From IMG/VR virus record IMGVR_UViG_3300014202_001519: a stretch of 64,000 nucleotides of DNA; one strand, given 5' to 3'. The stretch comes from a virus. Shown piece by piece: positions 9,849 to 58,700 of this stretch. Each line of letters opens with the position of its first letter. Positions within the stretch are counted from its first letter, which is position 1. Both the position numbers and the translations under genes were made by a program. The notes beneath the pieces are model-generated. The model searched no databases. It saw only the letters and a list, made by a program, of their open reading frames with translations, and was not told the DNA's origin.

Positions 9849-10970
9849 CTATTCTTCATCCCTGAGTCTCATAAAATACGGAAAACGCGGCTTACCATCA
9901 GGCGTATAGTTAAAGAATTTGATTGTCCCAACCTTTCCAATATAATCGTCCTTTTTCAAGAGCAGTTCCTTACAGAACTCACGGGTGCCCTTGATATTGG
10001 AATCAAACGTGGTCTTGCCGTCAAGGAACGCCGTGCCGTCCAGCTTCTTACAGACGACGTTGCCAGCACCGCCACTGCGGTTGCCAACACCTTCATTAAC
10101 CCCTACGATGAGGTATTCAGCATCCATGAACTCTTTATACTTGAGCAAATTCTTAGTTCGCTTTTGCTCATACTTGGAATCAATACGAACCATCAGCCCT
10201 TCATAGCCATCTTCTACGAAACTTTCGTAGTGGACAACCACTTCCTTTTCTTCCTTGACTTCATGTGTAGCAACGAGTTGTAGTGCAGGATGGCCCTTGG
10301 CAAAATGGAGAACCTTTTTCAATTCTCCAAAGCGTTCGCTGAATTTGCCGTCCCAAAACGGGAAGTCGTAAATATGATATTCGATGGATTTCGCCGCTTC
10401 AAGTAAATCTTCCTTCGTTGGTTTGCTTTTCTTTGCCAGCGAACAGATTTTATTGAAATCGTTGGCGAACTTATCCGCATACACTTCACCGTCGAAAATG
10501 TACTTCGGATTGTATTTGAACAGCGGGGCCAATGCCTCATAAATATGAGGAATTGACTTATATTCCTTGCCGTTGCGAGTCCACAACCCATCTTTATTAG
10601 CAATGAGCCTCAACCCGTCCAACTTCGGCTGGACGAAGAGTGGATACATTACCTCGTCCTTATAATCTTGCCAAACTTTAGCAAGCATGGGTTCGAAGAA
10701 AGAAGCATTATCAACATCGTTGATATCTGCTTTATAGCCCTTATCCACCTTCTTCTGCCATTCGGCCTTAGCTTCAGCCATCGCTTGTTGGGCAGCGCTA
10801 GTTTCATTCGCTCGCCCAATGTTCTTTCCACCGCAGACCGTCCATTCGGCAGTAACGATTTCGCCGTTCATAATGCCAGATAGGGACCGATGCTTATTGC
10901 CATCGACTTCTTTTTCCCAAATTTGAATTTTGCCGTCTGAACGCCGCGAATATAAAGGCGGAAGCTTCAT
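9849..10970 (-). CDS. ATP-dependent DNA ligase
   Basis: EPMLA, QPKLDGLR (motif I), DGEVY, EGYEGLMVR, LLKYK and PRFP; OB domain present. Confidence 0.93.
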   Translation of the reverse strand: MKLPPLYSRRSDGKIQIWEKEVDGNKHRSLSGIMNGEIVTAEWTVCGGKNIGRANETSAAQQAMAEAKAEWQKKVDKGYKADINDVDNASFFEPMLAKVWQDYKDEVMYPLFVQPKLDGLRLIANKDGLWTRNGKEYKSIPHIYEALAPLFKYNPKYIFDGEVYADKFANDFNKICSLAKKSKPTKEDLLEAAKSIEYHIYDFPFWDGKFSERFGELKKVLHFAKGHPALQLVATHEVKEEKEVVVHYESFVEDGYEGLMVRIDSKYEQKRTKNLLKYKEFMDAEYLIVGVNEGVGNRSGGAGNVVCKKLDGTAFLDGKTTFDSNIKGTREFCKELLLKKDDYIGKVGTIKFFNYTPDGKPRFPYFMRLRDEE

Positions 10971-10978
10971 TTTAACTC

Positions 10979-11545
10979 CTAAAAAAACAATTCGTTATAT
11001 ACTACCTTATCGAGTTTCAAGAGGTTCAGGATCAGCTTATCCAAAGTTGTAATATTATTATAACTGTAGCCAATAGGCAGTGACTCTAGTACAATAATCG
11101 GCCTTCCTGTTTCAAGGAAAGCAACATTTGGAGCCTCGACAAATACCTGATATTCCCCTTCCTTCTCTTTACGATCAACTCTAGTGCTTGTCGTTATGCC
11201 AATTTTCTTTTGTATTTCTAGTTTACTATCCCTTACATACAAAAGACCTTTTCGATCATCCTTGCTGATGTAGACCTTTGCCCTTTTGGTGGCCTCTTTC
11301 AATGCCGTCATAACAATGATGGCTAATAATTGGTTTCTAGGATAATGAACCTGATTAGCCTTATTGACGTTATCTTGCACAGTTGCACTTTGCTGTGGAA
11401 GATTGTTCAAATCATTGTTAAACTCAGCATACAATTTGGCCACTTTCATTTGCCAAGACCCAATAATCTTGGCCATTTTAATTTTAACATATCCTTCAAT
11501 CAATTCTTCGTTCAACATATTAGTCTTCAAACTCTCCCAAACCAC
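10979..11545 (-). CDS. hypothetical protein
   Basis: 188-aa ORF. Confidence 0.5.
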   Translation of the reverse strand: MVWESLKTNMLNEELIEGYVKIKMAKIIGSWQMKVAKLYAEFNNDLNNLPQQSATVQDNVNKANQVHYPRNQLLAIIVMTALKEATKRAKVYISKDDRKGLLYVRDSKLEIQKKIGITTSTRVDRKEKEGEYQVFVEAPNVAFLETGRPIIVLESLPIGYSYNNITTLDKLILNLLKLDKVVYNELFF

Positions 11546-11957
11546 CGTTCATCTGAATAAACGCACAATTCAGAGGGACGACATGCTCCTGTGCTACAAG
11601 CATAGCCTTAACGACTGCCACAGGCAATGATAGCTCCGCAATTAAATTTGCAGAACCAATGACTTCCCTCTCAGCCTGGAGCCAAAATTCAACACCATCG
11701 CTAACAGGCCGACCAGCTTGCTCCCACTTGGAATAAGCTAATTCACTAATCCTTGCCGTACTAGCATCAATGGTTTCGCTTTTTATCTTAACCAAAATCT
11801 CTTCGGTTAAGTCTTCTGGCTTAATAGTTGCCAGTAGGTTGTTCCACCGCTTTGCAAAAGTCTTTAGCTCATCCGAGCCTTGGACCTTATCAAGCTCGGC
11901 CTTGTATGTGGTCCAAATGGAGTCATCTTCAATATGAAGATAAATCGGCAACTTCAT
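11520..11957 (-). CDS. DUF2934-domain protein
   Basis: ISELAYSKWEQAGRPVSDGVEFWLQAEREV. Confidence 0.7.
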   Translation of the reverse strand: MKLPIYLHIEDDSIWTTYKAELDKVQGSDELKTFAKRWNNLLATIKPEDLTEEILVKIKSETIDASTARISELAYSKWEQAGRPVSDGVEFWLQAEREVIGSANLIAELSLPVAVVKAMLVAQEHVVPLNCAFIQMNGGLGEFED

Positions 11958-11966
11958 CGCTGACCC

Positions 11967-12134
11967 TCAAAGATCAAAACTGGAGGCTTTAAGTCGCTCC
12001 AGAATTTGTTCCGCCTCTTCTTCACCCATGATACCAATAAGATTCATAAGAACGTCATCGGCATCCCCGCTACTCTTGCCTTCTTTGAAGAGGTTCTTAT
12101 ACTCTTCAAAGAAGGCAATTAGTTTTTCTTTCAT
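11967..12134 (-). CDS. hypothetical protein
   Basis: ATGA overlap with the PARP stop; MKEKLIAFF. Confidence 0.5.
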   Translation of the reverse strand: MKEKLIAFFEEYKNLFKEGKSSGDADDVLMNLIGIMGEEEAEQILERLKASSFDL

Positions 12135-13741
12135 GCTGCAAACTCCACCAAGTAACGCAACTGGTTTTGCTTGCCGTCGTAGATGATCCACTCATTGTTG
12201 ACCACGCCAGACTTGCCCGCCTTGCCGTAGACACAATGATGACCCTTCGGTGCCGACGTATAACCGCCGCACCCTGGAGCAACCCAAGGATTGCCCAAGA
12301 CAACATCGCACGCGAACATGAAAGCATCACGGCCACGAACCCCACCGTCACCAGCGGAGTAATAACCGCCGCGAAGACTGGTATAACCAGCCGACTTGCG
12401 CCAATCATCAGCGAAGTAACAGCCAGGGCCGAACATAGCGCCTGTAATCACTACGCCGACTAGCTGCTTGGGCAAACGAAGCCCTTCTCGCAAGATACCA
12501 GTAACATTAACGCTACGAGTACCGTGGAAAAGCAGAGCCGTATTCGTATCATGATAACGCTTAATCAAATCATTATCTTCAACATCCTGCCGTTCCTTTG
12601 GCTGGAATGGCGCACGTTCAGTAATACGGCATTTCTCTTTGAGAACCATATCCTGAGCGCCACTGACCTTATTTTGGTCCCCGTGGCGAGCGACCTTCCA
12701 CATGTTCTTAATCTTCATTTCGCCAACGCCATAATGACGATTGGCGGAAGCCTTTGGCCACCAATTGTATAGGAACTTACCAGTGGCCGAAGTTGGGTCG
12801 ATCCATTCCATTGCCAAAGGCATACCCTGGAATGGATCATTAACTTTATCATCCTTGACAGTATCATCATGCACATAAAGAGCCGCCTCGAACGCATCCA
12901 AGTCAGCGTTCCATAGCATGATGTTATTCTTGTTCAGAATCCAATCTTCGGCAGCACAGTGTAGAGCCTTCTTCTTTGGAATACGCGAATACATAACTCG
13001 CGTAAGCTGAACAAGCTCATTATCAGCAGCTTGCTTATCAACGCTGTCACCAACCTTAATAAGACGCTTCTGTGCTTCTTGAAGGATTTGACGACCTTCT
13101 TCGATTGACTTTTGGGTAGGCAACGAAGAGTCAGCCATCGCACCACGGGCATAAGACACCGTAGCGACGTTCAAATCCTTCATGAGACGCATGGTATGCG
13201 TATCAATAGAAGGCTTCCTGACAATGACTGATGGTGCGTCACCTTTAACTGCTGGTGCAGCGGGAGCCTTAGTGACCTTGGCCCCTTCATTCAACTTAAT
13301 CGTTTTGCCATCGGGCAGGCCAGTTGAACGGGTAGCCATAGGACGGACCAAATAACAATCCTTATTTGGCTTTGCGGTCAAAGTCTTAATGCCAGCGATG
13401 GTGGTCCACATGCCACGCTTATCGTTCTTGTCATGCAGTTGGTCAGCAAACTCCTGTTGAGCATCGCTTTCACCACTGCATTCTACGAATTGGAATTGGG
13501 GTGAAGTGGCACCAGTACGGCCCCACTCAAAATATGTATACCACTTCTTAGTCTTCCTATGCTGGACCACAGCGCCGTGGTAATATTTATTGCTGTCTTT
13601 ACCCGACTGATCGAAACAGCCAAGGTCAGCAATCTTACACTTATCAAACTGACCGTCTTCGGTAGCTGGCGGTCCAAAACACTGAAAATCGTCAGGACCA
13701 GAACCAGTTGGAAATTCGCTCTTACCTAGTTTAACGCCCAT
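12131..13741 (-). CDS. WGR-domain poly(ADP-ribose) polymerase (PARP)-like protein
   Basis: WGR (YFEWGRTG), helical regulatory region (YSRIP) and catalytic LLFHGT, GAMFGPGCYFAD, SAGY and NNEWIIY (H-Y-E triad). Confidence 0.9.
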   Translation of the reverse strand: MGVKLGKSEFPTGSGPDDFQCFGPPATEDGQFDKCKIADLGCFDQSGKDSNKYYHGAVVQHRKTKKWYTYFEWGRTGATSPQFQFVECSGESDAQQEFADQLHDKNDKRGMWTTIAGIKTLTAKPNKDCYLVRPMATRSTGLPDGKTIKLNEGAKVTKAPAAPAVKGDAPSVIVRKPSIDTHTMRLMKDLNVATVSYARGAMADSSLPTQKSIEEGRQILQEAQKRLIKVGDSVDKQAADNELVQLTRVMYSRIPKKKALHCAAEDWILNKNNIMLWNADLDAFEAALYVHDDTVKDDKVNDPFQGMPLAMEWIDPTSATGKFLYNWWPKASANRHYGVGEMKIKNMWKVARHGDQNKVSGAQDMVLKEKCRITERAPFQPKERQDVEDNDLIKRYHDTNTALLFHGTRSVNVTGILREGLRLPKQLVGVVITGAMFGPGCYFADDWRKSAGYTSLRGGYYSAGDGGVRGRDAFMFACDVVLGNPWVAPGCGGYTSAPKGHHCVYGKAGKSGVVNNEWIIYDGKQNQLRYLVEFAA

Positions 13742-46071: not shown

Positions 46072-46252
46072 GTTCCCCGTTCCCTAGTTTTATGTTGTAC
46101 TTCTTAGCACACTCGGAAGCGTGTGGAAGACAGAGTTGCTTAGAGTCCCTGAATCCCCTGTTATAAATATATACGGCTGGTCTATGGCATTTACTCATAA
46201 AACAGCTATGAGTCCTGCCAGGAACTTCTCTTAATGGGTCTAATTTATGCAT
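45980..46252 (-). CDS. hypothetical Cys/His-rich protein
   Basis: C...C...C..H motif. Confidence 0.4.
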   Translation of the reverse strand: MHKLDPLREVPGRTHSCFMSKCHRPAVYIYNRGFRDSKQLCLPHASECAKKYNIKLGNGEHEHSINVEQHRTPEAQGNIETLSPHSEGDS

Positions 46253-47010
46253 CTTTTCTCCGCTGTCTCACAGTGTTCTTTAGATATATCACAGCATATG
46301 TATTTTCGATTATGCTTCTTCGCCGCCACCGCAGTAGTCCCACTACCGCAAAACGGATCAACTATTATATCACCTTCATCCGTAGAAATCAAAACCAACC
46401 ATTCAGTAAACGTAAGTCCTTTGATGGTAGGGTGATAGATGTTGTTGACTTTCTGGAAAACTGAATTTTCACTCGACCACGGGTATTCTTCCCCAAACCA
46501 ACAAGACGGCAACCTTGTCTTATACTCTGGAACAGGTTTGCGACCCTTATTAGGGATTACACCTGCCTTTTTGTTCTTAATTAACTTAGTCTGCCTAAAC
46601 CTAAATCTACCTTTATGAGCAAACATTATCCAGTCACTATTAGTCTGGAACGTTCCATATAAGTCGGTCTTGCCAGAAGCTCGTTTCTGGCAAATAATTG
46701 GCTCTTTCATAGCGAACCCAACACTTTCAATTTCCTTGTAATGGAGCGGATATTCGCTCCAGCCAGTGAAAGCGAAAAGTGCGGAGTCAGGACGCAGTAT
46801 ACGGTAGGCTTCCTTAGCCCAATCCGTATAATCAAAATGCACGGCATCGTTTTCGATCTTGCCGTGCATTTTATGAGTGAAATTGTTTTGGTAGTTTATA
46901 CCAAATGGTGGATCAGTTATTATTGCTGCTATTGATCCATCAGGTATTTTAGAAAGCAATTCTTTATAATCACAACACACAAGTTCCGATGTAATATTGT
47001 TCATATACAA
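46240..47010 (-). CDS. orphan N6-adenine/N4-cytosine DNA methyltransferase (beta class)
   Basis: ITDPPFG, HPTIK and VDPFCGSGTT. Confidence 0.92.
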   Translation of the reverse strand: MYMNNITSELVCCDYKELLSKIPDGSIAAIITDPPFGINYQNNFTHKMHGKIENDAVHFDYTDWAKEAYRILRPDSALFAFTGWSEYPLHYKEIESVGFAMKEPIICQKRASGKTDLYGTFQTNSDWIMFAHKGRFRFRQTKLIKNKKAGVIPNKGRKPVPEYKTRLPSCWFGEEYPWSSENSVFQKVNNIYHPTIKGLTFTEWLVLISTDEGDIIVDPFCGSGTTAVAAKKHNRKYICCDISKEHCETAEKRCIN

Positions 47011-47143
47011 GCACAGTCATTCCAATACTAGGAACATAAAACTCACCCTCGCCTTTACATATAGGGTGAAACCATCCTTCATCAGTCAAAATCCTACCCA
47101 TTTTATGGGGATCACGATTGTCTAATACTTGTTTTAATTTCAT
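46970..47143 (-). CDS. 57-aa mini-protein resembling the gp5/gpV OB-fold N-terminus (not in ORF track)
   Basis: Manual translation MKLKQVLDNRDPHKMGRILTDEGWFHPICKGEGEFYVPSIGMTVLVYEQYYIGTCVL; ATGA-coupled to the upstream gene. Confidence 0.55.
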   Translation of the reverse strand: MKLKQVLDNRDPHKMGRILTDEGWFHPICKGEGEFYVPSIGMTVLVYEQYYIGTCVL

Positions 47144-47736
47144 GGTTTTCCTTTAATCTTCAACAACATATTCAATTGCCATTTCAATACATCCCCTTTC
47201 TTTACCCATACGCCCTGCTTGCCAGCAGACATAATATCACCGCTACGTTGAACGCTCATATGACTGCCACCTGGATAGTAGTTGTTAATGATACTCATAA
47301 GGCTGTATTCGCCAACCTTGTGTTTTAACAAAGGAATCTTGCAGCCATGCTTGAACTTAACTACTGCCTGCTCGACCATCTGGTTCATGTCTTCTTCGTA
47401 CAAACTATGCATGTTTAGATGGTAATAAGCGTAAATCTTGTCTTCAGCAAAGAACAAATCGCCACGATATAGGTTCATTAAAGGCAATTTGATACTATCG
47501 CCAGCCTGCACAAATTCTGCCGCCCTATCATCTGTAGCCCAAATAATAGGCACTTTATGAGCTTTGCCTTCTTCATCTAAAACCACTGTATCCCTAAATT
47601 CTTTCATTGTCGCTTCATCACAACGACGAAAGAACCTGGAATATCTAAATTTTGGTTCCTCGGCCTTAATGAGATTACCAAGGCCAAAGACGCTCAAGGA
47701 TGCCGCCAACGCCTTCATGAAAAATCTACGATCCAT
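47140..47736 (-). CDS. twin-arginine-like leader fused to a T4 gp15 (tail terminator)-like region
   Basis: MDRRFFMKALAAS..., KVPIIWA, IKLPLMNL and YEEDMNQMVEQ. Confidence 0.55.
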   Translation of the reverse strand: MDRRFFMKALAASLSVFGLGNLIKAEEPKFRYSRFFRRCDEATMKEFRDTVVLDEEGKAHKVPIIWATDDRAAEFVQAGDSIKLPLMNLYRGDLFFAEDKIYAYYHLNMHSLYEEDMNQMVEQAVVKFKHGCKIPLLKHKVGEYSLMSIINNYYPGGSHMSVQRSGDIMSAGKQGVWVKKGDVLKWQLNMLLKIKGKP

Positions 47737-48004
47737 GTTTCAACCCTTTCATTATCTTGTCAGAATGTTCTCGAATTGCTTTCTTGCTCTCTTCCCTACG
47801 TTCAAAGAAACTCTTGCCGTCCTTGCCCCGCTTGCAGTGCATCTGATCTTGATGCTCAGAGCGACACCAAGCAATGAAATTCTTTGCATCTTCTGGCAAA
47901 TCCTTCCCATGCTCGAATATCCATGCTTCGTGCATATATGTCAAGTGTTCATCAGCTATCTCGATCAAGTCAGCCTGATATAACTTCATTGGTCTTTCTT
48001 CCAT
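47726..48004 (-). CDS. hypothetical protein
   Basis: 92-aa ORF. Confidence 0.45.
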   Translation of the reverse strand: MEERPMKLYQADLIEIADEHLTYMHEAWIFEHGKDLPEDAKNFIAWCRSEHQDQMHCKRGKDGKSFFERREESKKAIREHSDKIMKGLKHGS

Positions 48005-48070
48005 ACAGCAGAGTCCTCATCATTTTTAGGGAATCTCAGAATAACACAAAAGTCTTTGTGCCAGGGTCTT

Positions 48071-48289
48071 TTAGACCACAATGATCTTGATAGGGCATAG
48101 AATCACCTTTGAACCTTGAGAAATTAACTCTTGAACAAGTAGTTCGTGATTCTCACCATAATAGAATATATCTGGATTGTTCTGTGCTAATGAATCTACG
48201 TCTATAGAGTCGGGAACATCAAGATAGATTGCTTTATCCTCTTCTTGAATCCCCGTCCATTGTTCCATCGGTTGTATTTTGACTATCAT
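48071..48289 (-). CDS. hypothetical protein
   Basis: 72-aa ORF. Confidence 0.4.
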   Translation of the reverse strand: MIVKIQPMEQWTGIQEEDKAIYLDVPDSIDVDSLAQNNPDIFYYGENHELLVQELISQGSKVILCPIKIIVV

Positions 48290-48596
48290 TCTTTATTTCA
48301 ATCTTTCCATAATGCTTGGCACCCTCTTCTAGTAATTTCTTACCATACTTTGTAAGAATGCCCTTCTGTGGTTTAAAGCTCGCCACATCTATAACAGTTG
48401 GCTTAAAGTCTGGTGGCATAATAGGACAATAGAAATAACCTTCGTCTAAAGTTACCTTTATAGGAATTACCTTATAAGGAACTTTGTCCCTGCATTCCAT
48501 GCAGACGCCGTACATAAACTGCGAACCGTCTTCAAGCTCGCACAAAGGATACACTATTGCGGTTCTGTTGTTACATATCTTGCAAAGTTCATTCAT
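48234..48596 (-). CDS. zinc-finger protein with a gp23-like GYFYCP motif
   Basis: CKIC...CMEC then EGYFYCPIMP. Confidence 0.45.
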   Translation of the reverse strand: MNELCKICNNRTAIVYPLCELEDGSQFMYGVCMECRDKVPYKVIPIKVTLDEGYFYCPIMPPDFKPTVIDVASFKPQKGILTKYGKKLLEEGAKHYGKIEIKNDSQNTTDGTMDGDSRRG

Positions 48597-48638
48597 GCTA
48601 TCAATATAGCGTCAAATCCCCTTAGCTGCAAGATCACA

Positions 48639-51542
48639 TCATGGGCTTACAAAGCTTTGTGACGAAGAGATAACTGGAGTCACACACTTCAAGACGCCAG
48701 ACCACACAAACAAGAACCAACACAGGCAGTCATCTGGAGTATAGGCTGTAACTACATTCGGTGGTCCACTTGGGCCACAATTACAAATTGCGGAGTGAGC
48801 AGGTAAAAATTCAGTCTTCACATGCATCAAGTTTCCAACATTAGGATTGAAGTAACTTGGGAATGGTGGCAATGGCACACCATTCATGAAGAAAAAGTCT
48901 GCATACTGACTCTGTGCGTCACCTACCGCTGTTGCAATTTTAGGCTTCCAGGTATATTTGGTATTCCATGAAACACTGTATTCGTTACTACCGCCAATCG
49001 TATCTGGCTCGCAACCAACACACTTGAGAAGCTTGGCACCATGCCATATTATAATCTCTCTTGTCTCACTCTCAGTAACCGTTCCACTAACTGGAACGCA
49101 ACAATGCTGTCTAGGTCTGGTAATAACCTGTGGACCTGTATCGTATATGACTAGCAACGCAATACCTTGTCCACCACAACAACCTGGGTAGTGAGGTGAA
49201 TCGGAAGCTGCATAAGCAATCGCAGAGCTTGGTTCTACACCTGGAAGCGATATTAAATAAGTACCAGAGCCAGGAACTAAAGCTGTTACATCCTGCCACC
49301 AAACCTTGTTTAGTAAGTTGTTGTCTTCTTCCAAATCACCATGATCGCTACCATCAGCGGAACAGAAAGCTGACCAGCAAGTATTGCCACAACAGCCAAT
49401 AATATCGCCAGGCACCTCTACATCGTTAAATATAGCAGTATCAGGGCAATTGTCAGCACCGCCAATTGTGTTCCAGTATAAATAAGCCTTGATAACAGGC
49501 CCAGGAACAGTAATGGTGATCGGAGCAGGGAATATATTTGTATACTCATCCCTTATACCAACACCTTCAAGCACAAAGTCTACATTTCCAACTACACGAT
49601 CATACTGATAAAGTTGGTCGAATGGTGCTTCTGCGTGACAGGCGTTTGGACCGCAATCACTTGGCTCGCAAATAAGTGGGTAAGTTACACCAACATATAA
49701 GAACCAACACAAACAGTCATCTGGAGTAGCTCCTTCAATGAAATTGGAGCCAGCTTGCATTTCAACCAAATGCTCATTTAAATGCAACAAATTCCCAAAA
49801 TAAGGATTGGCATAACTTCCAGCGGCATTTTGCGGCAATGGATTACCATTCCACGAAAAATTATCACCGTAAAGCGTCTGAGCATCGCCAATGCCTAAAA
49901 CGATTCTAGTACAACCTGTCTGTTCTGCATCTATTGGGCCAACGTCAACCGTATAAGTGTCGGTGCCACCATAAGTGGCTGCTAGTGAGGCTGGAACCAA
50001 AAGAACCGATCCATCAAAGACCTGCAAGTGTTTTAGACCACAAGGCGAATCATAAATAATAAGCAATACAACGCCTTGGCTACCAGCACAACCTGGGAAG
50101 TGTGGTGTATCAGAAGCCAGGAAAGCAATTAACGGATCAAGGATAATATTCGGTATGGTTATAGATGAATTGAAAGTACCGCCCGTTGGTACAGCCGCCT
50201 GTACTTGGGCTGTTACATCGGCACGATATACTTTGTTCTTAATGCCTGGATTGAATCCAGTATCAGCTAGTCCGCAATAATTAGGTGGCGACCAACAGGT
50301 GTCACCAACTGGATCAAATGCTACAGTGTCAACCCCATCTACAGTATAAGGAGTACCATTTAAAATAATGGTATCTGTGGTCACGTTATCATCTGTGATA
50401 ACGTTCCAGTATAGGTAAGCTTCAAGTGGTGCGCCAGGAACGCCAGTGTTGAATACTACTGGCGTACTAGCTATATCTAAGTCTCTAGTGCCCCTGCCAT
50501 TAACTACATAGTCATAATTACCTGTCAAGTCCTTAAAGGCAGCTAGACTGCCAGCGTCAAGCAACACATCATCACAGGCAACCTGTTCTTCACCGCAATA
50601 AACAAACAAAAACCAACATAGGCATTCCGTTCCACCTACAACGCTCATGGTGCCTAGATTACCAGTTTCAAAGGCACAAGCATTGAGAGCAATAGTAGTG
50701 TTTAGTAGATTTGGACCAGTTGGACCACCACCATTAGGATTAATCGCACTGCCGAATGCATTTTGCGGCAAACAGAAACCGTTAAAGCAGAAAGAATCGC
50801 CATAATCAGTTTGTGCATCACCTGCCGCCAATGCTATTTTAGGATTGGTTAAGTAAACGCCAGCATCAAAGTTTACAGTATAGGAAGGAGTGCCACCGAA
50901 AATGCTTCCAGATGGAGCTAATAACTTGGCACCTTCCATCACCTGTATTTCACGATTTATAAGCGTGCCATCATTATAAACAACCAATAACGCAACACCT
51001 TGACTACCAGCACAAGTTGGATAATGTGCTGAATCAGAACCATTAAAAGCAATGCTGTCTATGCCAGTAGCTGTTACGATACCTGGAAGTCTAACAGAAA
51101 AGGTGTTTGAACCAGCTAAAAGCCCCGCTGCAACATCAGTTGTTACATCAGTAGCATAAACTCGATTGTATATATCTTGAAGAGTAGTCGCCCCGTCATT
51201 ACCTGAGCCGTTCCCTTCGGCAAGCCAACAGGCGTCATTACACCAGCCAATCAAGGTTGTTCCTAAAGAAGAAAATCCACCACCATTAACATCAAAATCA
51301 ACAGTTGGGAAGACGACAGGATGTTCTACTAAGATGTTAGTGTAAAGAGTTGCATTAACTATAATAGCGCCAGAGGGGATGGTTAGAGTAATCTCAGCAG
51401 GCGTAATATTTGTGTCGAAATCTCTAGTGCCAGCACCACCTAATACAAAATTCTGGCCTGGGCCACTATATGTGGCGACAGGCGTACTCGATAATAGGTC
51501 AAATAACGGCGCAGGCGGTGGTGTTCCAGGCGTACAAGCCAT
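48639..51542 (-). CDS. 967-aa protein with three ~300-aa Cys-containing repeats (putative surface/virion protein)
   Basis: three copies each of GxRD, AYLYWN-like, QG..LL..Y, GDAQ.xY.D and CLCWFL. Confidence 0.75.
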   Translation of the reverse strand: MACTPGTPPPAPLFDLLSSTPVATYSGPGQNFVLGGAGTRDFDTNITPAEITLTIPSGAIIVNATLYTNILVEHPVVFPTVDFDVNGGGFSSLGTTLIGWCNDACWLAEGNGSGNDGATTLQDIYNRVYATDVTTDVAAGLLAGSNTFSVRLPGIVTATGIDSIAFNGSDSAHYPTCAGSQGVALLVVYNDGTLINREIQVMEGAKLLAPSGSIFGGTPSYTVNFDAGVYLTNPKIALAAGDAQTDYGDSFCFNGFCLPQNAFGSAINPNGGGPTGPNLLNTTIALNACAFETGNLGTMSVVGGTECLCWFLFVYCGEEQVACDDVLLDAGSLAAFKDLTGNYDYVVNGRGTRDLDIASTPVVFNTGVPGAPLEAYLYWNVITDDNVTTDTIILNGTPYTVDGVDTVAFDPVGDTCWSPPNYCGLADTGFNPGIKNKVYRADVTAQVQAAVPTGGTFNSSITIPNIILDPLIAFLASDTPHFPGCAGSQGVVLLIIYDSPCGLKHLQVFDGSVLLVPASLAATYGGTDTYTVDVGPIDAEQTGCTRIVLGIGDAQTLYGDNFSWNGNPLPQNAAGSYANPYFGNLLHLNEHLVEMQAGSNFIEGATPDDCLCWFLYVGVTYPLICEPSDCGPNACHAEAPFDQLYQYDRVVGNVDFVLEGVGIRDEYTNIFPAPITITVPGPVIKAYLYWNTIGGADNCPDTAIFNDVEVPGDIIGCCGNTCWSAFCSADGSDHGDLEEDNNLLNKVWWQDVTALVPGSGTYLISLPGVEPSSAIAYAASDSPHYPGCCGGQGIALLVIYDTGPQVITRPRQHCCVPVSGTVTESETREIIIWHGAKLLKCVGCEPDTIGGSNEYSVSWNTKYTWKPKIATAVGDAQSQYADFFFMNGVPLPPFPSYFNPNVGNLMHVKTEFLPAHSAICNCGPSGPPNVVTAYTPDDCLCWFLFVWSGVLKCVTPVISSSQSFVSP

Positions 51543-57404: not shown

Positions 57405-57629
57405 TGGTTGTCCCGTAGGCAGGATTCTGTTTTATGCTATCATTTGTCTATTGGCACCGACCATACCCGTTGTGCTGCTCACCCACTGAGTATATTTGGC
57501 TTGCTCCCTCCGTAGTTCAAACGATACTTGCGGCTTTCGCCGCTTTCTCTCCTACGTTAAGCAGTGGAGTCCCGACCTTCCTCACATCCCTTGCGGGGTA
57601 GTGCGATAGCTCAGACAACCAATGATTAA
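57397..57629 (-). ncRNA. rnpB: RNase P RNA (compact, reduced specificity domain)
   Basis: 16-bp P1 (57614-57629 with 57397-57412), P2 GCTATC/GATAGC, GAGGAAGGTCGGGACTCC (CR-I), GGAGCAAG..CAAATA, and AAAACAGAATCCTGCCTAC (CR-V/P4). Confidence 0.88.
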
Positions 57630-58339
57630 ATTGCATCCAGATACTGTGTCCAATATATCAAGTTCTCATTACCTTCCGTGACCAATTGCTTGCCATCCAT
57701 TTCATAAAGCGACGACGCACCCTTCCAATCGCTATTCAGCAAAGTAAACTTCCGACGAATATGACCCAACATAATCGTCGCCTTAGCCAACATGATGTTC
57801 TTAAAGACTTCCTTGCCCATGCCGCCACAATTAAGAACATCAAGACCCTTGGATTTGGCTATGTCGTCAAACAAAACCTTAGTTTCGTTATAACAAGCCT
57901 CAAGCTGCTGAGGGTCCAACTCAATCTGTAGGACTGGTGCGCCAAGCATCAGCAGTGTGTGGTCAATAGACAACTGTTTGTCAGGAGCTTCAAACGGCGT
58001 GTTATCCCTTATAAGTTGCTGTGCTTCTATAAGTGGTGGTTGTGTCCCATCCAAAGAGAAAACTTCAATTTTGGTTTCTTGGTTACGAACAGGAACAATG
58101 ATTAGCTCCCAATCGTCAAGAGCCTTTCTTATATCCTGCTTATGCCATCTTTCCTTCATTCGATCAATGAACGCCTCGGCCTTATAAGGTGGAAGCTGGC
58201 CAACGTTCAAGGTAAGGCAAATAAATCCCCTGGACCTCTTTGGTACAATTGCAATATCGCCTTTGGCGACTTGGGCGACGGCACCCAGGCCAAGAAAACC
58301 AGCGATCCAGGCCATGAAGCCTCTACGATTCTTGTCCAT
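57626..58339 (-). CDS. twin-arginine-like leader + portal (gp20)-like segment + neck (gp13)-like segment
   Basis: NRRGFM..., LNVGQLPPYKAEAFIDRMK, MLGAPVLQIEL and LGHIRRKF...DGKQLVTEG. Confidence 0.6.
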   Translation of the reverse strand: MDKNRRGFMAWIAGFLGLGAVAQVAKGDIAIVPKRSRGFICLTLNVGQLPPYKAEAFIDRMKERWHKQDIRKALDDWELIIVPVRNQETKIEVFSLDGTQPPLIEAQQLIRDNTPFEAPDKQLSIDHTLLMLGAPVLQIELDPQQLEACYNETKVLFDDIAKSKGLDVLNCGGMGKEVFKNIMLAKATIMLGHIRRKFTLLNSDWKGASSLYEMDGKQLVTEGNENLIYWTQYLDAI

Positions 58340-58700
58340 CGCTTGCTCCTAGATATTGCTGTTCACTTTCGTCATAGACAGCCAATTGGAACCTAGTATT
58401 GCCCTCTGGTGTCTTATGAGGGTCAATTACTACATGGAATGGAAATCGCTTTTTGAAAAGTAATACACAATCTTGAAAGTCTTGTGTATTAAGGATGACA
58501 TTGGCGGTGGCGAATCCGAATCCACACCATTTGGCAGCTTCTGCAAATCTATCCGTTGTGGTGAACAAAGGCAATATCGTTTTTCCGCCCAATTCTAAAA
58601 AAATGGGATTATTATTGGCGGGGTTAATTGGAAGCAACATACCCCTTATTTGATATTGGATGACTTTTTCTGTAACCTTTTTCATTCTGGTTGCGCCCAA
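58323..58700 (-). CDS. hypothetical protein (SseB-like)
   Basis: ILPLFTT..RF...VVIDP. Confidence 0.4.
   Translation of the reverse strand: MGATRMKKVTEKVIQYQIRGMLLPINPANNNPIFLELGGKTILPLFTTTDRFAEAAKWCGFGFATANVILNTQDFQDCVLLFKKRFPFHVVIDPHKTPEGNTRFQLAVYDESEQQYLGASDGQES

Follow-up and report, generated by a model that had tools for sequence, protein, structure and literature searches.

What would a very large T4-like phage do with a tail terminator that begins with an export signal? The question is raised by one gene in a 64,000-nucleotide stretch of viral DNA from IMG/VR record IMGVR_UViG_3300014202_001519 (the window hereafter means this whole stretch). The gene lies on the minus strand at 47140-47736, starts with ATG and has 198 codons. 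An earlier note, made from the letters alone, had described it as a leader of the twin-arginine translocation (Tat) type fused to a region resembling the tail terminator gp15 of phage T4. The strings quoted in its support, MDRRFFMKALAASLSVFGLGNLIKAEE, KVPIIWA, IKLPLMNL and HSLYEEDMNQMVEQAVVKF, are all present in the translation of this open reading frame (ORF). The sequence evidence points, with slightly more confidence than doubt, to a gp15 paralogue that has left the virion, is exported through the Tat pathway and acts in the host envelope.

The mature part of the protein is a whole tail-terminator core homologous to T4 gp15. Taken alone, the window protein remains below the threshold of the Pfam family T4-gp15_tss (PF16724; E 0.12, 11.9 bits, cut-off 25). 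A database search returned 11 relatives besides its own entry, from 80% down to 25% identity, and four of them have precomputed PF16724 matches. The profile of the family alignment (A1) finds the T4 gp15 structures 4huh and 3j2m with E 2.6e-11, profile positions 30-140 lying on gp15 4-151. The AlphaFold2 model made from the same alignment has a predicted local distance difference test score (pLDDT) of ~80-93 at residues 31-140 and 181-198, while the leader and the loop 150-179 are uncertain. Its six best Foldseek matches in the PDB are all T4 gp15 (E ~1e-7, probability 1.0). VIA-align places model residues 29-198 on gp15 3-200 with Z 14.9, a root mean square deviation of 3.1 Å over 140 residues and 25% identity; the rows that follow gp15, at least 45, are tail terminators of other phages and contractile systems, among them those of Mu, P74-26, T5, lambda (gpU) and R-pyocin. 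The motifs KVPI.WA, LP..N and Y.EDMNQ..EQ...KF are common to the window protein and T4 gp15. The homology is solid because the PF16724 matches of the relatives, the family profile, Foldseek and VIA-align all support it. The profile and structural checks proposed in the earlier note, with a lack of gp15 similarity as the outcome that would speak against it, thus found the similarity.

Alignment and protein both stop at the point corresponding to residue 200 of the 272 in gp15; the C-terminal domain (~201-272) and an internal loop are absent. Nothing else of the terminator is missing, so that the word "fragment", used in the earlier note, does not fit. In the in-situ structure of T4, the C-terminal domain of gp15 forms a common beta-sheet with gp18, the sheath protein, and keeps the sheath from growing further; the core touches gp3 and the tube on its lower side and gp14 on its upper side (PMC12929629). 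Because this core is kept, the gp15-like protein could still form a ring or bind partners at the tube end or the neck end.

The leader is a clean N-terminal addition, with 3-4 residues between the predicted cut and the position aligned to gp15 3-4 (model 29-30). Its residues 1-25 comprise MD, RR and FFMK (DRRFFMK being residues 2-8), a 15-residue uncharged stretch rich in Gly, Ala and Ser (mean Kyte-Doolittle 1.75), and I-K-A, after which EE follows; the predicted cleavage site after A25 was placed by eye according to the AxA rule. For comparison, the Tat consensus is (S/T)RRxFLK, and the default expression of TatP is RR.[FGAVML][LITMVF] (PMC1182353). Close relatives have the consensus MNRRFFMRALAASLGxFGLGKFAKAEEP, with A12, L14, F17, G18 and A25 identical throughout and K24 present in most. 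When 32 leaders were tabulated from this family and from that of a second leader-bearing gene of the window (57626-58339, see below), RR was found in 31 and KR in one, and 30 matched the TatP expression. The longest uncharged run after RR measures 11-21 residues in the gp15-like family (mean Kyte-Doolittle 1.2-2.2) and at least 16 in the other, where a few runs continue beyond the hydrophobic h-region. The leader is conserved across one clade of ~20 clusters at 50% identity. One relative (P0099) passes the NCBIfam model TIGR01409, TAT_signal_seq, with 18.5 bits against a cut-off of 16.7; another (P0041) reaches only 12.1. Among the language-model neighbours (Atlas clusters) are TAT_signal proteins, a periplasmic [Fe] hydrogenase small subunit and a Rieske TAT-signal domain, with scores of 0.77-0.82 that provide a lead only. 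By its sequence features, the leader is that of a conserved twin-arginine signal peptide, as the earlier note had it; that the protein is actually exported, we infer from these features. Two other candidates for the leader were discarded. A lipoprotein signal is ruled out by the lack of a conserved Cys at the cleavage site, and a propeptide cut by a prohead protease, as in head proteins, was dropped because its sole support, the acidic residues after the leader, stands against a full signal-peptide anatomy.

The twin-arginine motif would be left untranslated if the protein began at Met7, and the gene calls of several members (P0001, P0006, P0007) do begin at this inner Met. Such an annotation artefact is hardly credible. 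The pattern M-x-R-R-x-F lies in frame upstream in the window, in the contigs L004, L005 and L043 and in the phage genome LR756511, reading MNRRFF ahead of the called start in L004 and L005. The two Arg codons across four genomes are CGT AGA, AGG CGA, AGA CGA and CGA CGG, and this synonymous variation indicates that the leader is translated and under selection. In the window, AAGGG lies 8 nt before the first ATG, and nothing comparable precedes Met7; in one relative, whose contig has a 1-nt frameshift inside the leader, the upstream ATG is preceded by a strong AAAGGAGA ribosome-binding site. On the 32-kb contig L006, the leader MNRRFFMKA (9975-10010) is split from its gene by a 1-nt deletion, which represents either an assembly error or decay, and an IS605-type TnpB gene (11311-12417) is located ~0.7 kb downstream.

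Export may also be granted and Tat denied. The leader would then be a Sec-type signal or a weakly hydrophobic signal-anchor-release (SAR) segment in which RR occurs by chance, and the protein would be tethered outside and released later, like the SAR endolysins. SAR domains are rich in Gly, Ala and Ser, and so is the h-region here. With ~25 residues and an n-region of two, the leader is nearer to Sec length (PMC1182353), and in the window copy it falls below the cut-offs of the hidden Markov models for Tat signals. A Sec signal does not, however, require RR and the following F and M/L, which are kept in two unrelated families down to ~31% identity, and a folded, ring-forming domain is better suited to Tat. 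The c-region of the leader also holds a basic residue, a known feature of Sec avoidance. On balance, a Sec or SAR route is quite unlikely.

Whether the leader-bearing gene is simply the terminator of its phage can be judged from the nearest complete genome, LR756511.1, which belongs to a 595-kb uncultured phage. It encodes a leader-bearing orthologue (MNRRTFMSVLGSMMAFLGMGAKK...) at 217.9-218.6 kb and, 250 kb away, a leaderless canonical gp15 of 350 amino acids at 466.8-467.7 kb (Pfam 66.7 bits; E 6e-121 with the profile of the long huge-phage gp15). The canonical gene adjoins two genes for gp19-like tube proteins; gp13 is encoded at 472.3-473.2 kb and the portal protein at 531-533.6 kb. The comparison with the true gp15 that the earlier note had called for thus shows, in this relative, that the tagged gene is not the only gp15. 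A working T4-type terminator is defined by a C-terminal domain that binds the sheath and by a place in the tail module; neither feature is present here, and the gp15-like protein is therefore filed as a divergent paralogue and not as a terminator.

A profile search of 1.84 billion representative proteins gave 113 gp15-like relatives in three groups: leader-bearing forms of ~160-220 amino acids, long canonical forms of ~300-345, and many leaderless forms of ~110-200. In the tree built from the core domain, 19 leader-bearing rows group into one clade (Shimodaira-Hasegawa-like approximate likelihood ratio test, SH-aLRT, 92), five of them with a gene call that starts inside the leader, and one further leader-bearing row falls, unresolved, just outside it. 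The long canonical gp15 forms a separate clade (99), and both clades lie in one larger branch (support 89); the tree comes from a quick search, and many of its forks are unresolved. The simplest history suggested by these sequences would be that the phage duplicated its own gp15 and that the copy was then trimmed and acquired the leader once. Short forms without a leader (P0044 at L039 5001-5489, P0049 at L041 906-1361 and ~40 other clusters) occur in other large phages.

The 373-kb record IMG/VR UViG_3300003310_000099 could be taken to contradict this separation, since its leader-bearing gene is its only gp15-family match. No T4-type portal, tube protein or gp13-like gene was detected on this contig, and the structural module therefore appears to be missing. 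The absence of a canonical gp15 there is thus uninformative as support for the leader-bearing gene being the terminator, despite a completeness estimate of 98%. The record is classed as a "provirus"; the genomes of relatives are near 600 kb, and the estimate looks unreliable for this lineage.

The surroundings of the gene agree with the earlier note, which had placed it outside any structural operon. It lies inside a tightly packed string of minus-strand genes running from a Zn-ribbon gene (48596) to a DNA methylase (46240), and its neighbours in the window (DNA methylase, HNH nuclease, DUF433, PRTase, BKACE) include no virion genes. Synteny of this neighbourhood is kept in relatives. Taken as a whole, the window covers a non-structural region from the genome of a very large phage, with PARP, ADP-ribosylglycohydrolase, DNA ligase, ClpX, M50 peptidase, PRPP synthetase, FolD, HNH nuclease, DUF433 and BKACE genes; nothing else resembling gp15 was found in its 64 kb, nor was any canonical gene for the neck, the portal or the tube.

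The leader is not confined to one gene. All ORFs of the window were scanned for RR with an uncharged stretch near the start, and two credible genes emerged, at 47140-47736 and 57626-58339. In the family of the second, the leader MxxNRRGFMxWLAGFFGLGAV is kept down to 31% identity, the C-terminal half matches both ends of T4 gp13 (E 5e-4), and the N-terminal half has a motif in common with the phage's portal. The two genes share a strand and are separated by 6-10 kb in the window, in L006 (32 kb) and in LR756511. A leader scan of the whole LR756511 genome yielded five small ORFs with such a leader, three of them derived from connector proteins: the gp15-like and gp13-like genes and an 86-residue ORF that joins a leader to a portal-clip-like piece (E 1e-3 against Portal_T4 positions 205-235). 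The other two encode Cys-containing proteins of 152 and 115 residues that have no match in Pfam, PHROGs or NCBIfam. The recurring design supposed in the earlier note is therefore borne out. The tag behaves like a signal peptide, being a short, variable, tripartite N-terminus common to different small proteins.

Pieces of connector proteins also seem to move between these genes. After its NN motif, the gp15-like protein of the window's subclade, and of no other, has an insert (NNYYPGGS...GKQGEWxLY) that is shortened in the window copy. In a single comparison, 17 of 45 residues of the insert were identical to the central segment of the phage's canonical gp13 (E 2e-6), and the piece YGKQGEWILYKQ comes directly after the leader in two of the gp13-like proteins (P0020, P0022). 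The module YYPGGS...YG[KR][QA]GEW[IV]LYKQ thus occurs in three settings, the centre of canonical gp13 (LR756511, 472.7 kb), the gp15-like insert and the post-leader position in gp13-like proteins. This distribution of sequences suggests an exchange of small modules among connector-derived genes. An ORF of 125 residues (58323-58700, minus strand) overlaps the start of the gp13-like gene and is kept directly upstream of it in LR756511 with 44% identity; its product may be a partner of the tagged gp13-like protein.

The proposed course of events begins with a gp15 duplicate that would have lost its N-terminal extension, internal loop and C-terminal domain and gained the leader once, at the base of the clade. 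The gene would be transcribed with non-structural genes, and the precursor would fold in the cytoplasm. Host TatBC would then recognise RRxFM and the protein would be moved across the inner membrane, where signal peptidase I would presumably cut after I-K-A to generate a terminator-like protein of ~20 kDa. This product would be released into the periplasm or, in a monoderm host, outside the membrane, and would work outside the virion, probably together with the tagged portal-clip/gp13 protein. The role preferred by analogy would be an envelope-level block or decoy against related phages, for example in superinfection exclusion. The DNA-binding tip of the T4 tape measure lies at that end of the tube where gp3 and gp15 are, and it is the first to leave when the phage infects (PMC12929629). 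A decoy might offer this ejected tape-measure/DNA tip of an incoming phage a copy of its usual channel rings.

Alternatively, the leader may engage the membrane or TatBC and leave the domain in the cytoplasm. A ring of the gp15-like protein, together with the gp13/clip protein, would then hold tails, necks or proheads at the membrane or act as an assembly chaperone, and the protein may or may not enter the virion. T4 head assembly does start on the membrane, the whole terminator core with its T4 contacts to gp3 and tube and to gp14 is kept, and three of the tagged proteins copy consecutive connector layers. Tat signal peptides are reported to insert first as a hairpin while the cargo is still cytoplasmic (PMC3538955). 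The leader nevertheless has the anatomy of a cleavable signal rather than of an anchor, with an h-region of 11-17 residues, a conserved small-x-small site and acidic residues after it, and the positive-inside rule would place the C-terminal domain outside. Loss of the sheath-binding domain and the distance of the gene from every structural gene also speak against a part in assembly. Release is likelier than tethering, as the 15-residue h-region of the window protein is probably too short for a stable anchor. A membrane tether is accordingly regarded as unlikely.

A role that never leaves the cytoplasm would make the protein a decoy of another kind, one that poisons the joining of tails to heads in competing phages or soaks up a host sensor of virion proteins, with the leader serving partner binding or turnover. 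The same phage does have leaderless stand-alone virion pieces, such as the gp23-like protein of 48234-48596 and the OB-like 57-residue ORF, and leaderless mini-gp15 genes are common in non-structural neighbourhoods. A cytoplasmic decoy would nonetheless leave unexplained why a conserved tripartite twin-arginine signal with a peptidase site sits on exactly these proteins, and we know of no defence system that senses gp15. It is judged very unlikely.

Several points weigh against a Tat-exported envelope protein. The window protein has no match to TIGR01409 or to Pfam TAT_signal (PF10518), both short models near the filter limits, and its leader of ~25 residues compares with an average of 37 for Tat signals (PMC1182353); given this short leader, Sec routing may be conceivable. 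No TatA or TatC is encoded in LR756511, so that the host Tat machinery would have to be used. The genome of the window is only partly visible, and the canonical gp15 was observed in the relative LR756511. Those leaderless short forms that were sampled also lie among non-structural genes of other phages, and a trimmed terminator can therefore have a role without export. With these points counted, the balance still leans, if only slightly, towards a Tat-exported paralogue outside the virion. A more far-reaching version, in which host Tat exports a matched, trimmed connector set (portal clip, gp13 adaptor, gp15 terminator) that assembles into a periplasmic ring mimicking the virion channel, and in which this ring captures the tape-measure/DNA tip of superinfecting relatives or forms a trans-envelope conduit, is a speculative extrapolation from these sequences and is improbable as it stands.

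The features of the locus and of its relatives are collected in the following table.

Table. Positions of the gp15-like gene, its parts and the associated leader-bearing genes (window positions unless an accession is given).
Feature	Position	Strand	Basis or remark
Whole gene: 198-residue precursor, Tat-type signal peptide and gp15-like tail-terminator core	47140..47736	(-)	Stop codon 47140-47142
Predicted signal peptide, residues 1-25 (n-region MD, twin-arginine motif, h-region ALAASLSVFGLGNLI, c-region K24 and I-K-A)	47662..47736	(-)	Predicted cleavage after A25
Twin-arginine core RRFFM, residues 3-7, then K8	47716..47730	(-)	SRRxFLK with L->M; TatP expression RR.[FGAVML][LITMVF] matched
Mature domain, residues 29-198, core fold corresponding to T4 gp15 residues 3-200	47143..47652	(-)	Profile, Foldseek, VIA-align
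Variable insert, residues ~151-178 (NNYYPGGS...GKQGVWV)	47203..47286	(-)	Window subclade only; poorly modelled
57-residue ORF, ATGA overlap indicating translational coupling, no leader	46970..47143	(-)	Conserved downstream in close relatives
Sister gene: twin-arginine leader, portal-clip-like motif and gp13 neck-adaptor core	57626..58339	(-)	Leader scan, family comparisons
Three further leader-bearing ORFs (152, 115 and 86 residues)	LR756511.1 129141-129599, 157861-158208, 410484-410744	all (-)	Leader scan

Upstream, an ORF of 92 codons overlaps the gp15-like gene by 11 nt, and downstream, the 57-codon ORF is joined to it by the ATGA stop/start overlap. Neither this 92-residue ORF nor the 125-residue ORF beside the sister gene has a match in Pfam, PHROGs or NCBIfam. 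The 57-residue product is kept in close relatives with 52-79% identity and shows a weak likeness to a spike OB domain (Phage_base_V, E 0.078); its counterpart in LR756511 forms the N-terminal part of an ORF of 121 codons (587477-587839), encoded far away from the gp15-like gene. A complex prediction of the mature domain (28-198) with this protein scored 0.00, a value that, with controls not run, counts neither way. Promoter and terminator scans around the operon gave counts not above those of shuffled sequence, and the T4 late-promoter octamers do not lie upstream of the gene. A search for sequencing runs matching 46240-48600 listed none, and GTDB genome contigs scanned with the family alignment gave no confirmed relative.

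Farther upstream, 48234-48596 (minus strand) encodes a protein of 120 residues with an N-terminal Cys-rich zinc ribbon, followed by a stretch like the late part of T4 gp23. Its match to Pfam Gp23 (E 1.3e-4, 21.9 bits) lies just under the cut-off of 24.4, and the PHROG for the major head protein is matched with E 0.006; it represents another stand-alone piece of a virion protein in the same gene string. Directly upstream of the string, 48639-51542 (minus strand) encodes 967 residues with three DUF3344-like repeats, each ending in DDCLCWFL[FY]V, and L006 has a 705-residue gene at the same position.

Full-text literature searches that combined phage, jumbo phage or huge phage with twin-arginine or Tat signal found no paper describing such a protein. 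Huge phages are said, in a general remark in the survey of Al-Shayeb et al. 2020, to encode predicted membrane and cell-surface proteins that may affect the susceptibility of the host to other phages; its main text mentions neither twin-arginine signals nor secretion, and "signal peptide" occurs once, in the reference list (PMC7162821). If the proposed reading is true, phages would reuse components of the virion for tasks in the host envelope, in the form of an export-tagged, sheath-blind terminator and a neck/portal mimic, and Tat would have a new class of cargo. To our knowledge, tail terminators are known only as virion parts assembled in the cytoplasm. The gp15-like family may be a sign that phages exclude or manipulate their competitors in a manner not yet described, and it could serve as a marker for finding "moonlighting" virion paralogues in metagenomes.

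Among known proteins, T4 gp15 (PF16724; PDB 4hud, 4huh, 3j2m, 9mkb) is the reference, with a homologous core and common signature motifs. It differs in having a plain N-terminus where the gp15-like protein has a 25-residue twin-arginine leader, and in its ~70-residue gp18-pairing C-terminal domain and internal loop, which the gp15-like protein lacks. The gp15-like gene also lies away from tail genes, as a second copy beside a canonical gp15 in LR756511. The nearest cytoplasmic paralogue is the canonical gp15 of huge T4-like phages (300-350 residues; LR756511, P0011), which shares ~30-33% identity in the core and belongs to the same larger branch. That protein has an 80-90-residue Cys-rich N-terminal extension, an internal insertion of ~40 residues and a C-terminal tail; it has no leader, and its gene adjoins the tube genes.

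Tat signal peptides (S/T-R-R-x-F-L-K; TIGR01409, PF10518) likewise show RR followed by F, M/L and K, a moderately hydrophobic, Gly/Ala-rich h-region (here with a GLG motif), a basic c-region residue and a small-x-small site. The n-region of the phage leader is unusually short in comparison; the Tat signal of E. coli SufI is itself short, with 27 residues. The proteins known to travel by Tat are mainly redox enzymes with cofactors, together with some hydrolases, whereas the cargo here would be a homologue of a virion protein, a kind of cargo for which the literature searched gave no example.

For function, the favoured analogy is with the superinfection-exclusion proteins Imm and Sp of T4, which belong to the envelope, are encoded apart from the virion genes and interfere with the injection step of an incoming phage. 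The gp15-like protein has no sequence or fold relation to them, and Imm and Sp are small proteins of the membrane that do not copy any part of the virion. The closest parallel in design is found within the same window, in the product of 57626-58339, which combines the same kind of leader, on the same strand, with a trimmed connector part and differs in the family from which that part comes, the gp13 adaptor and the portal clip.

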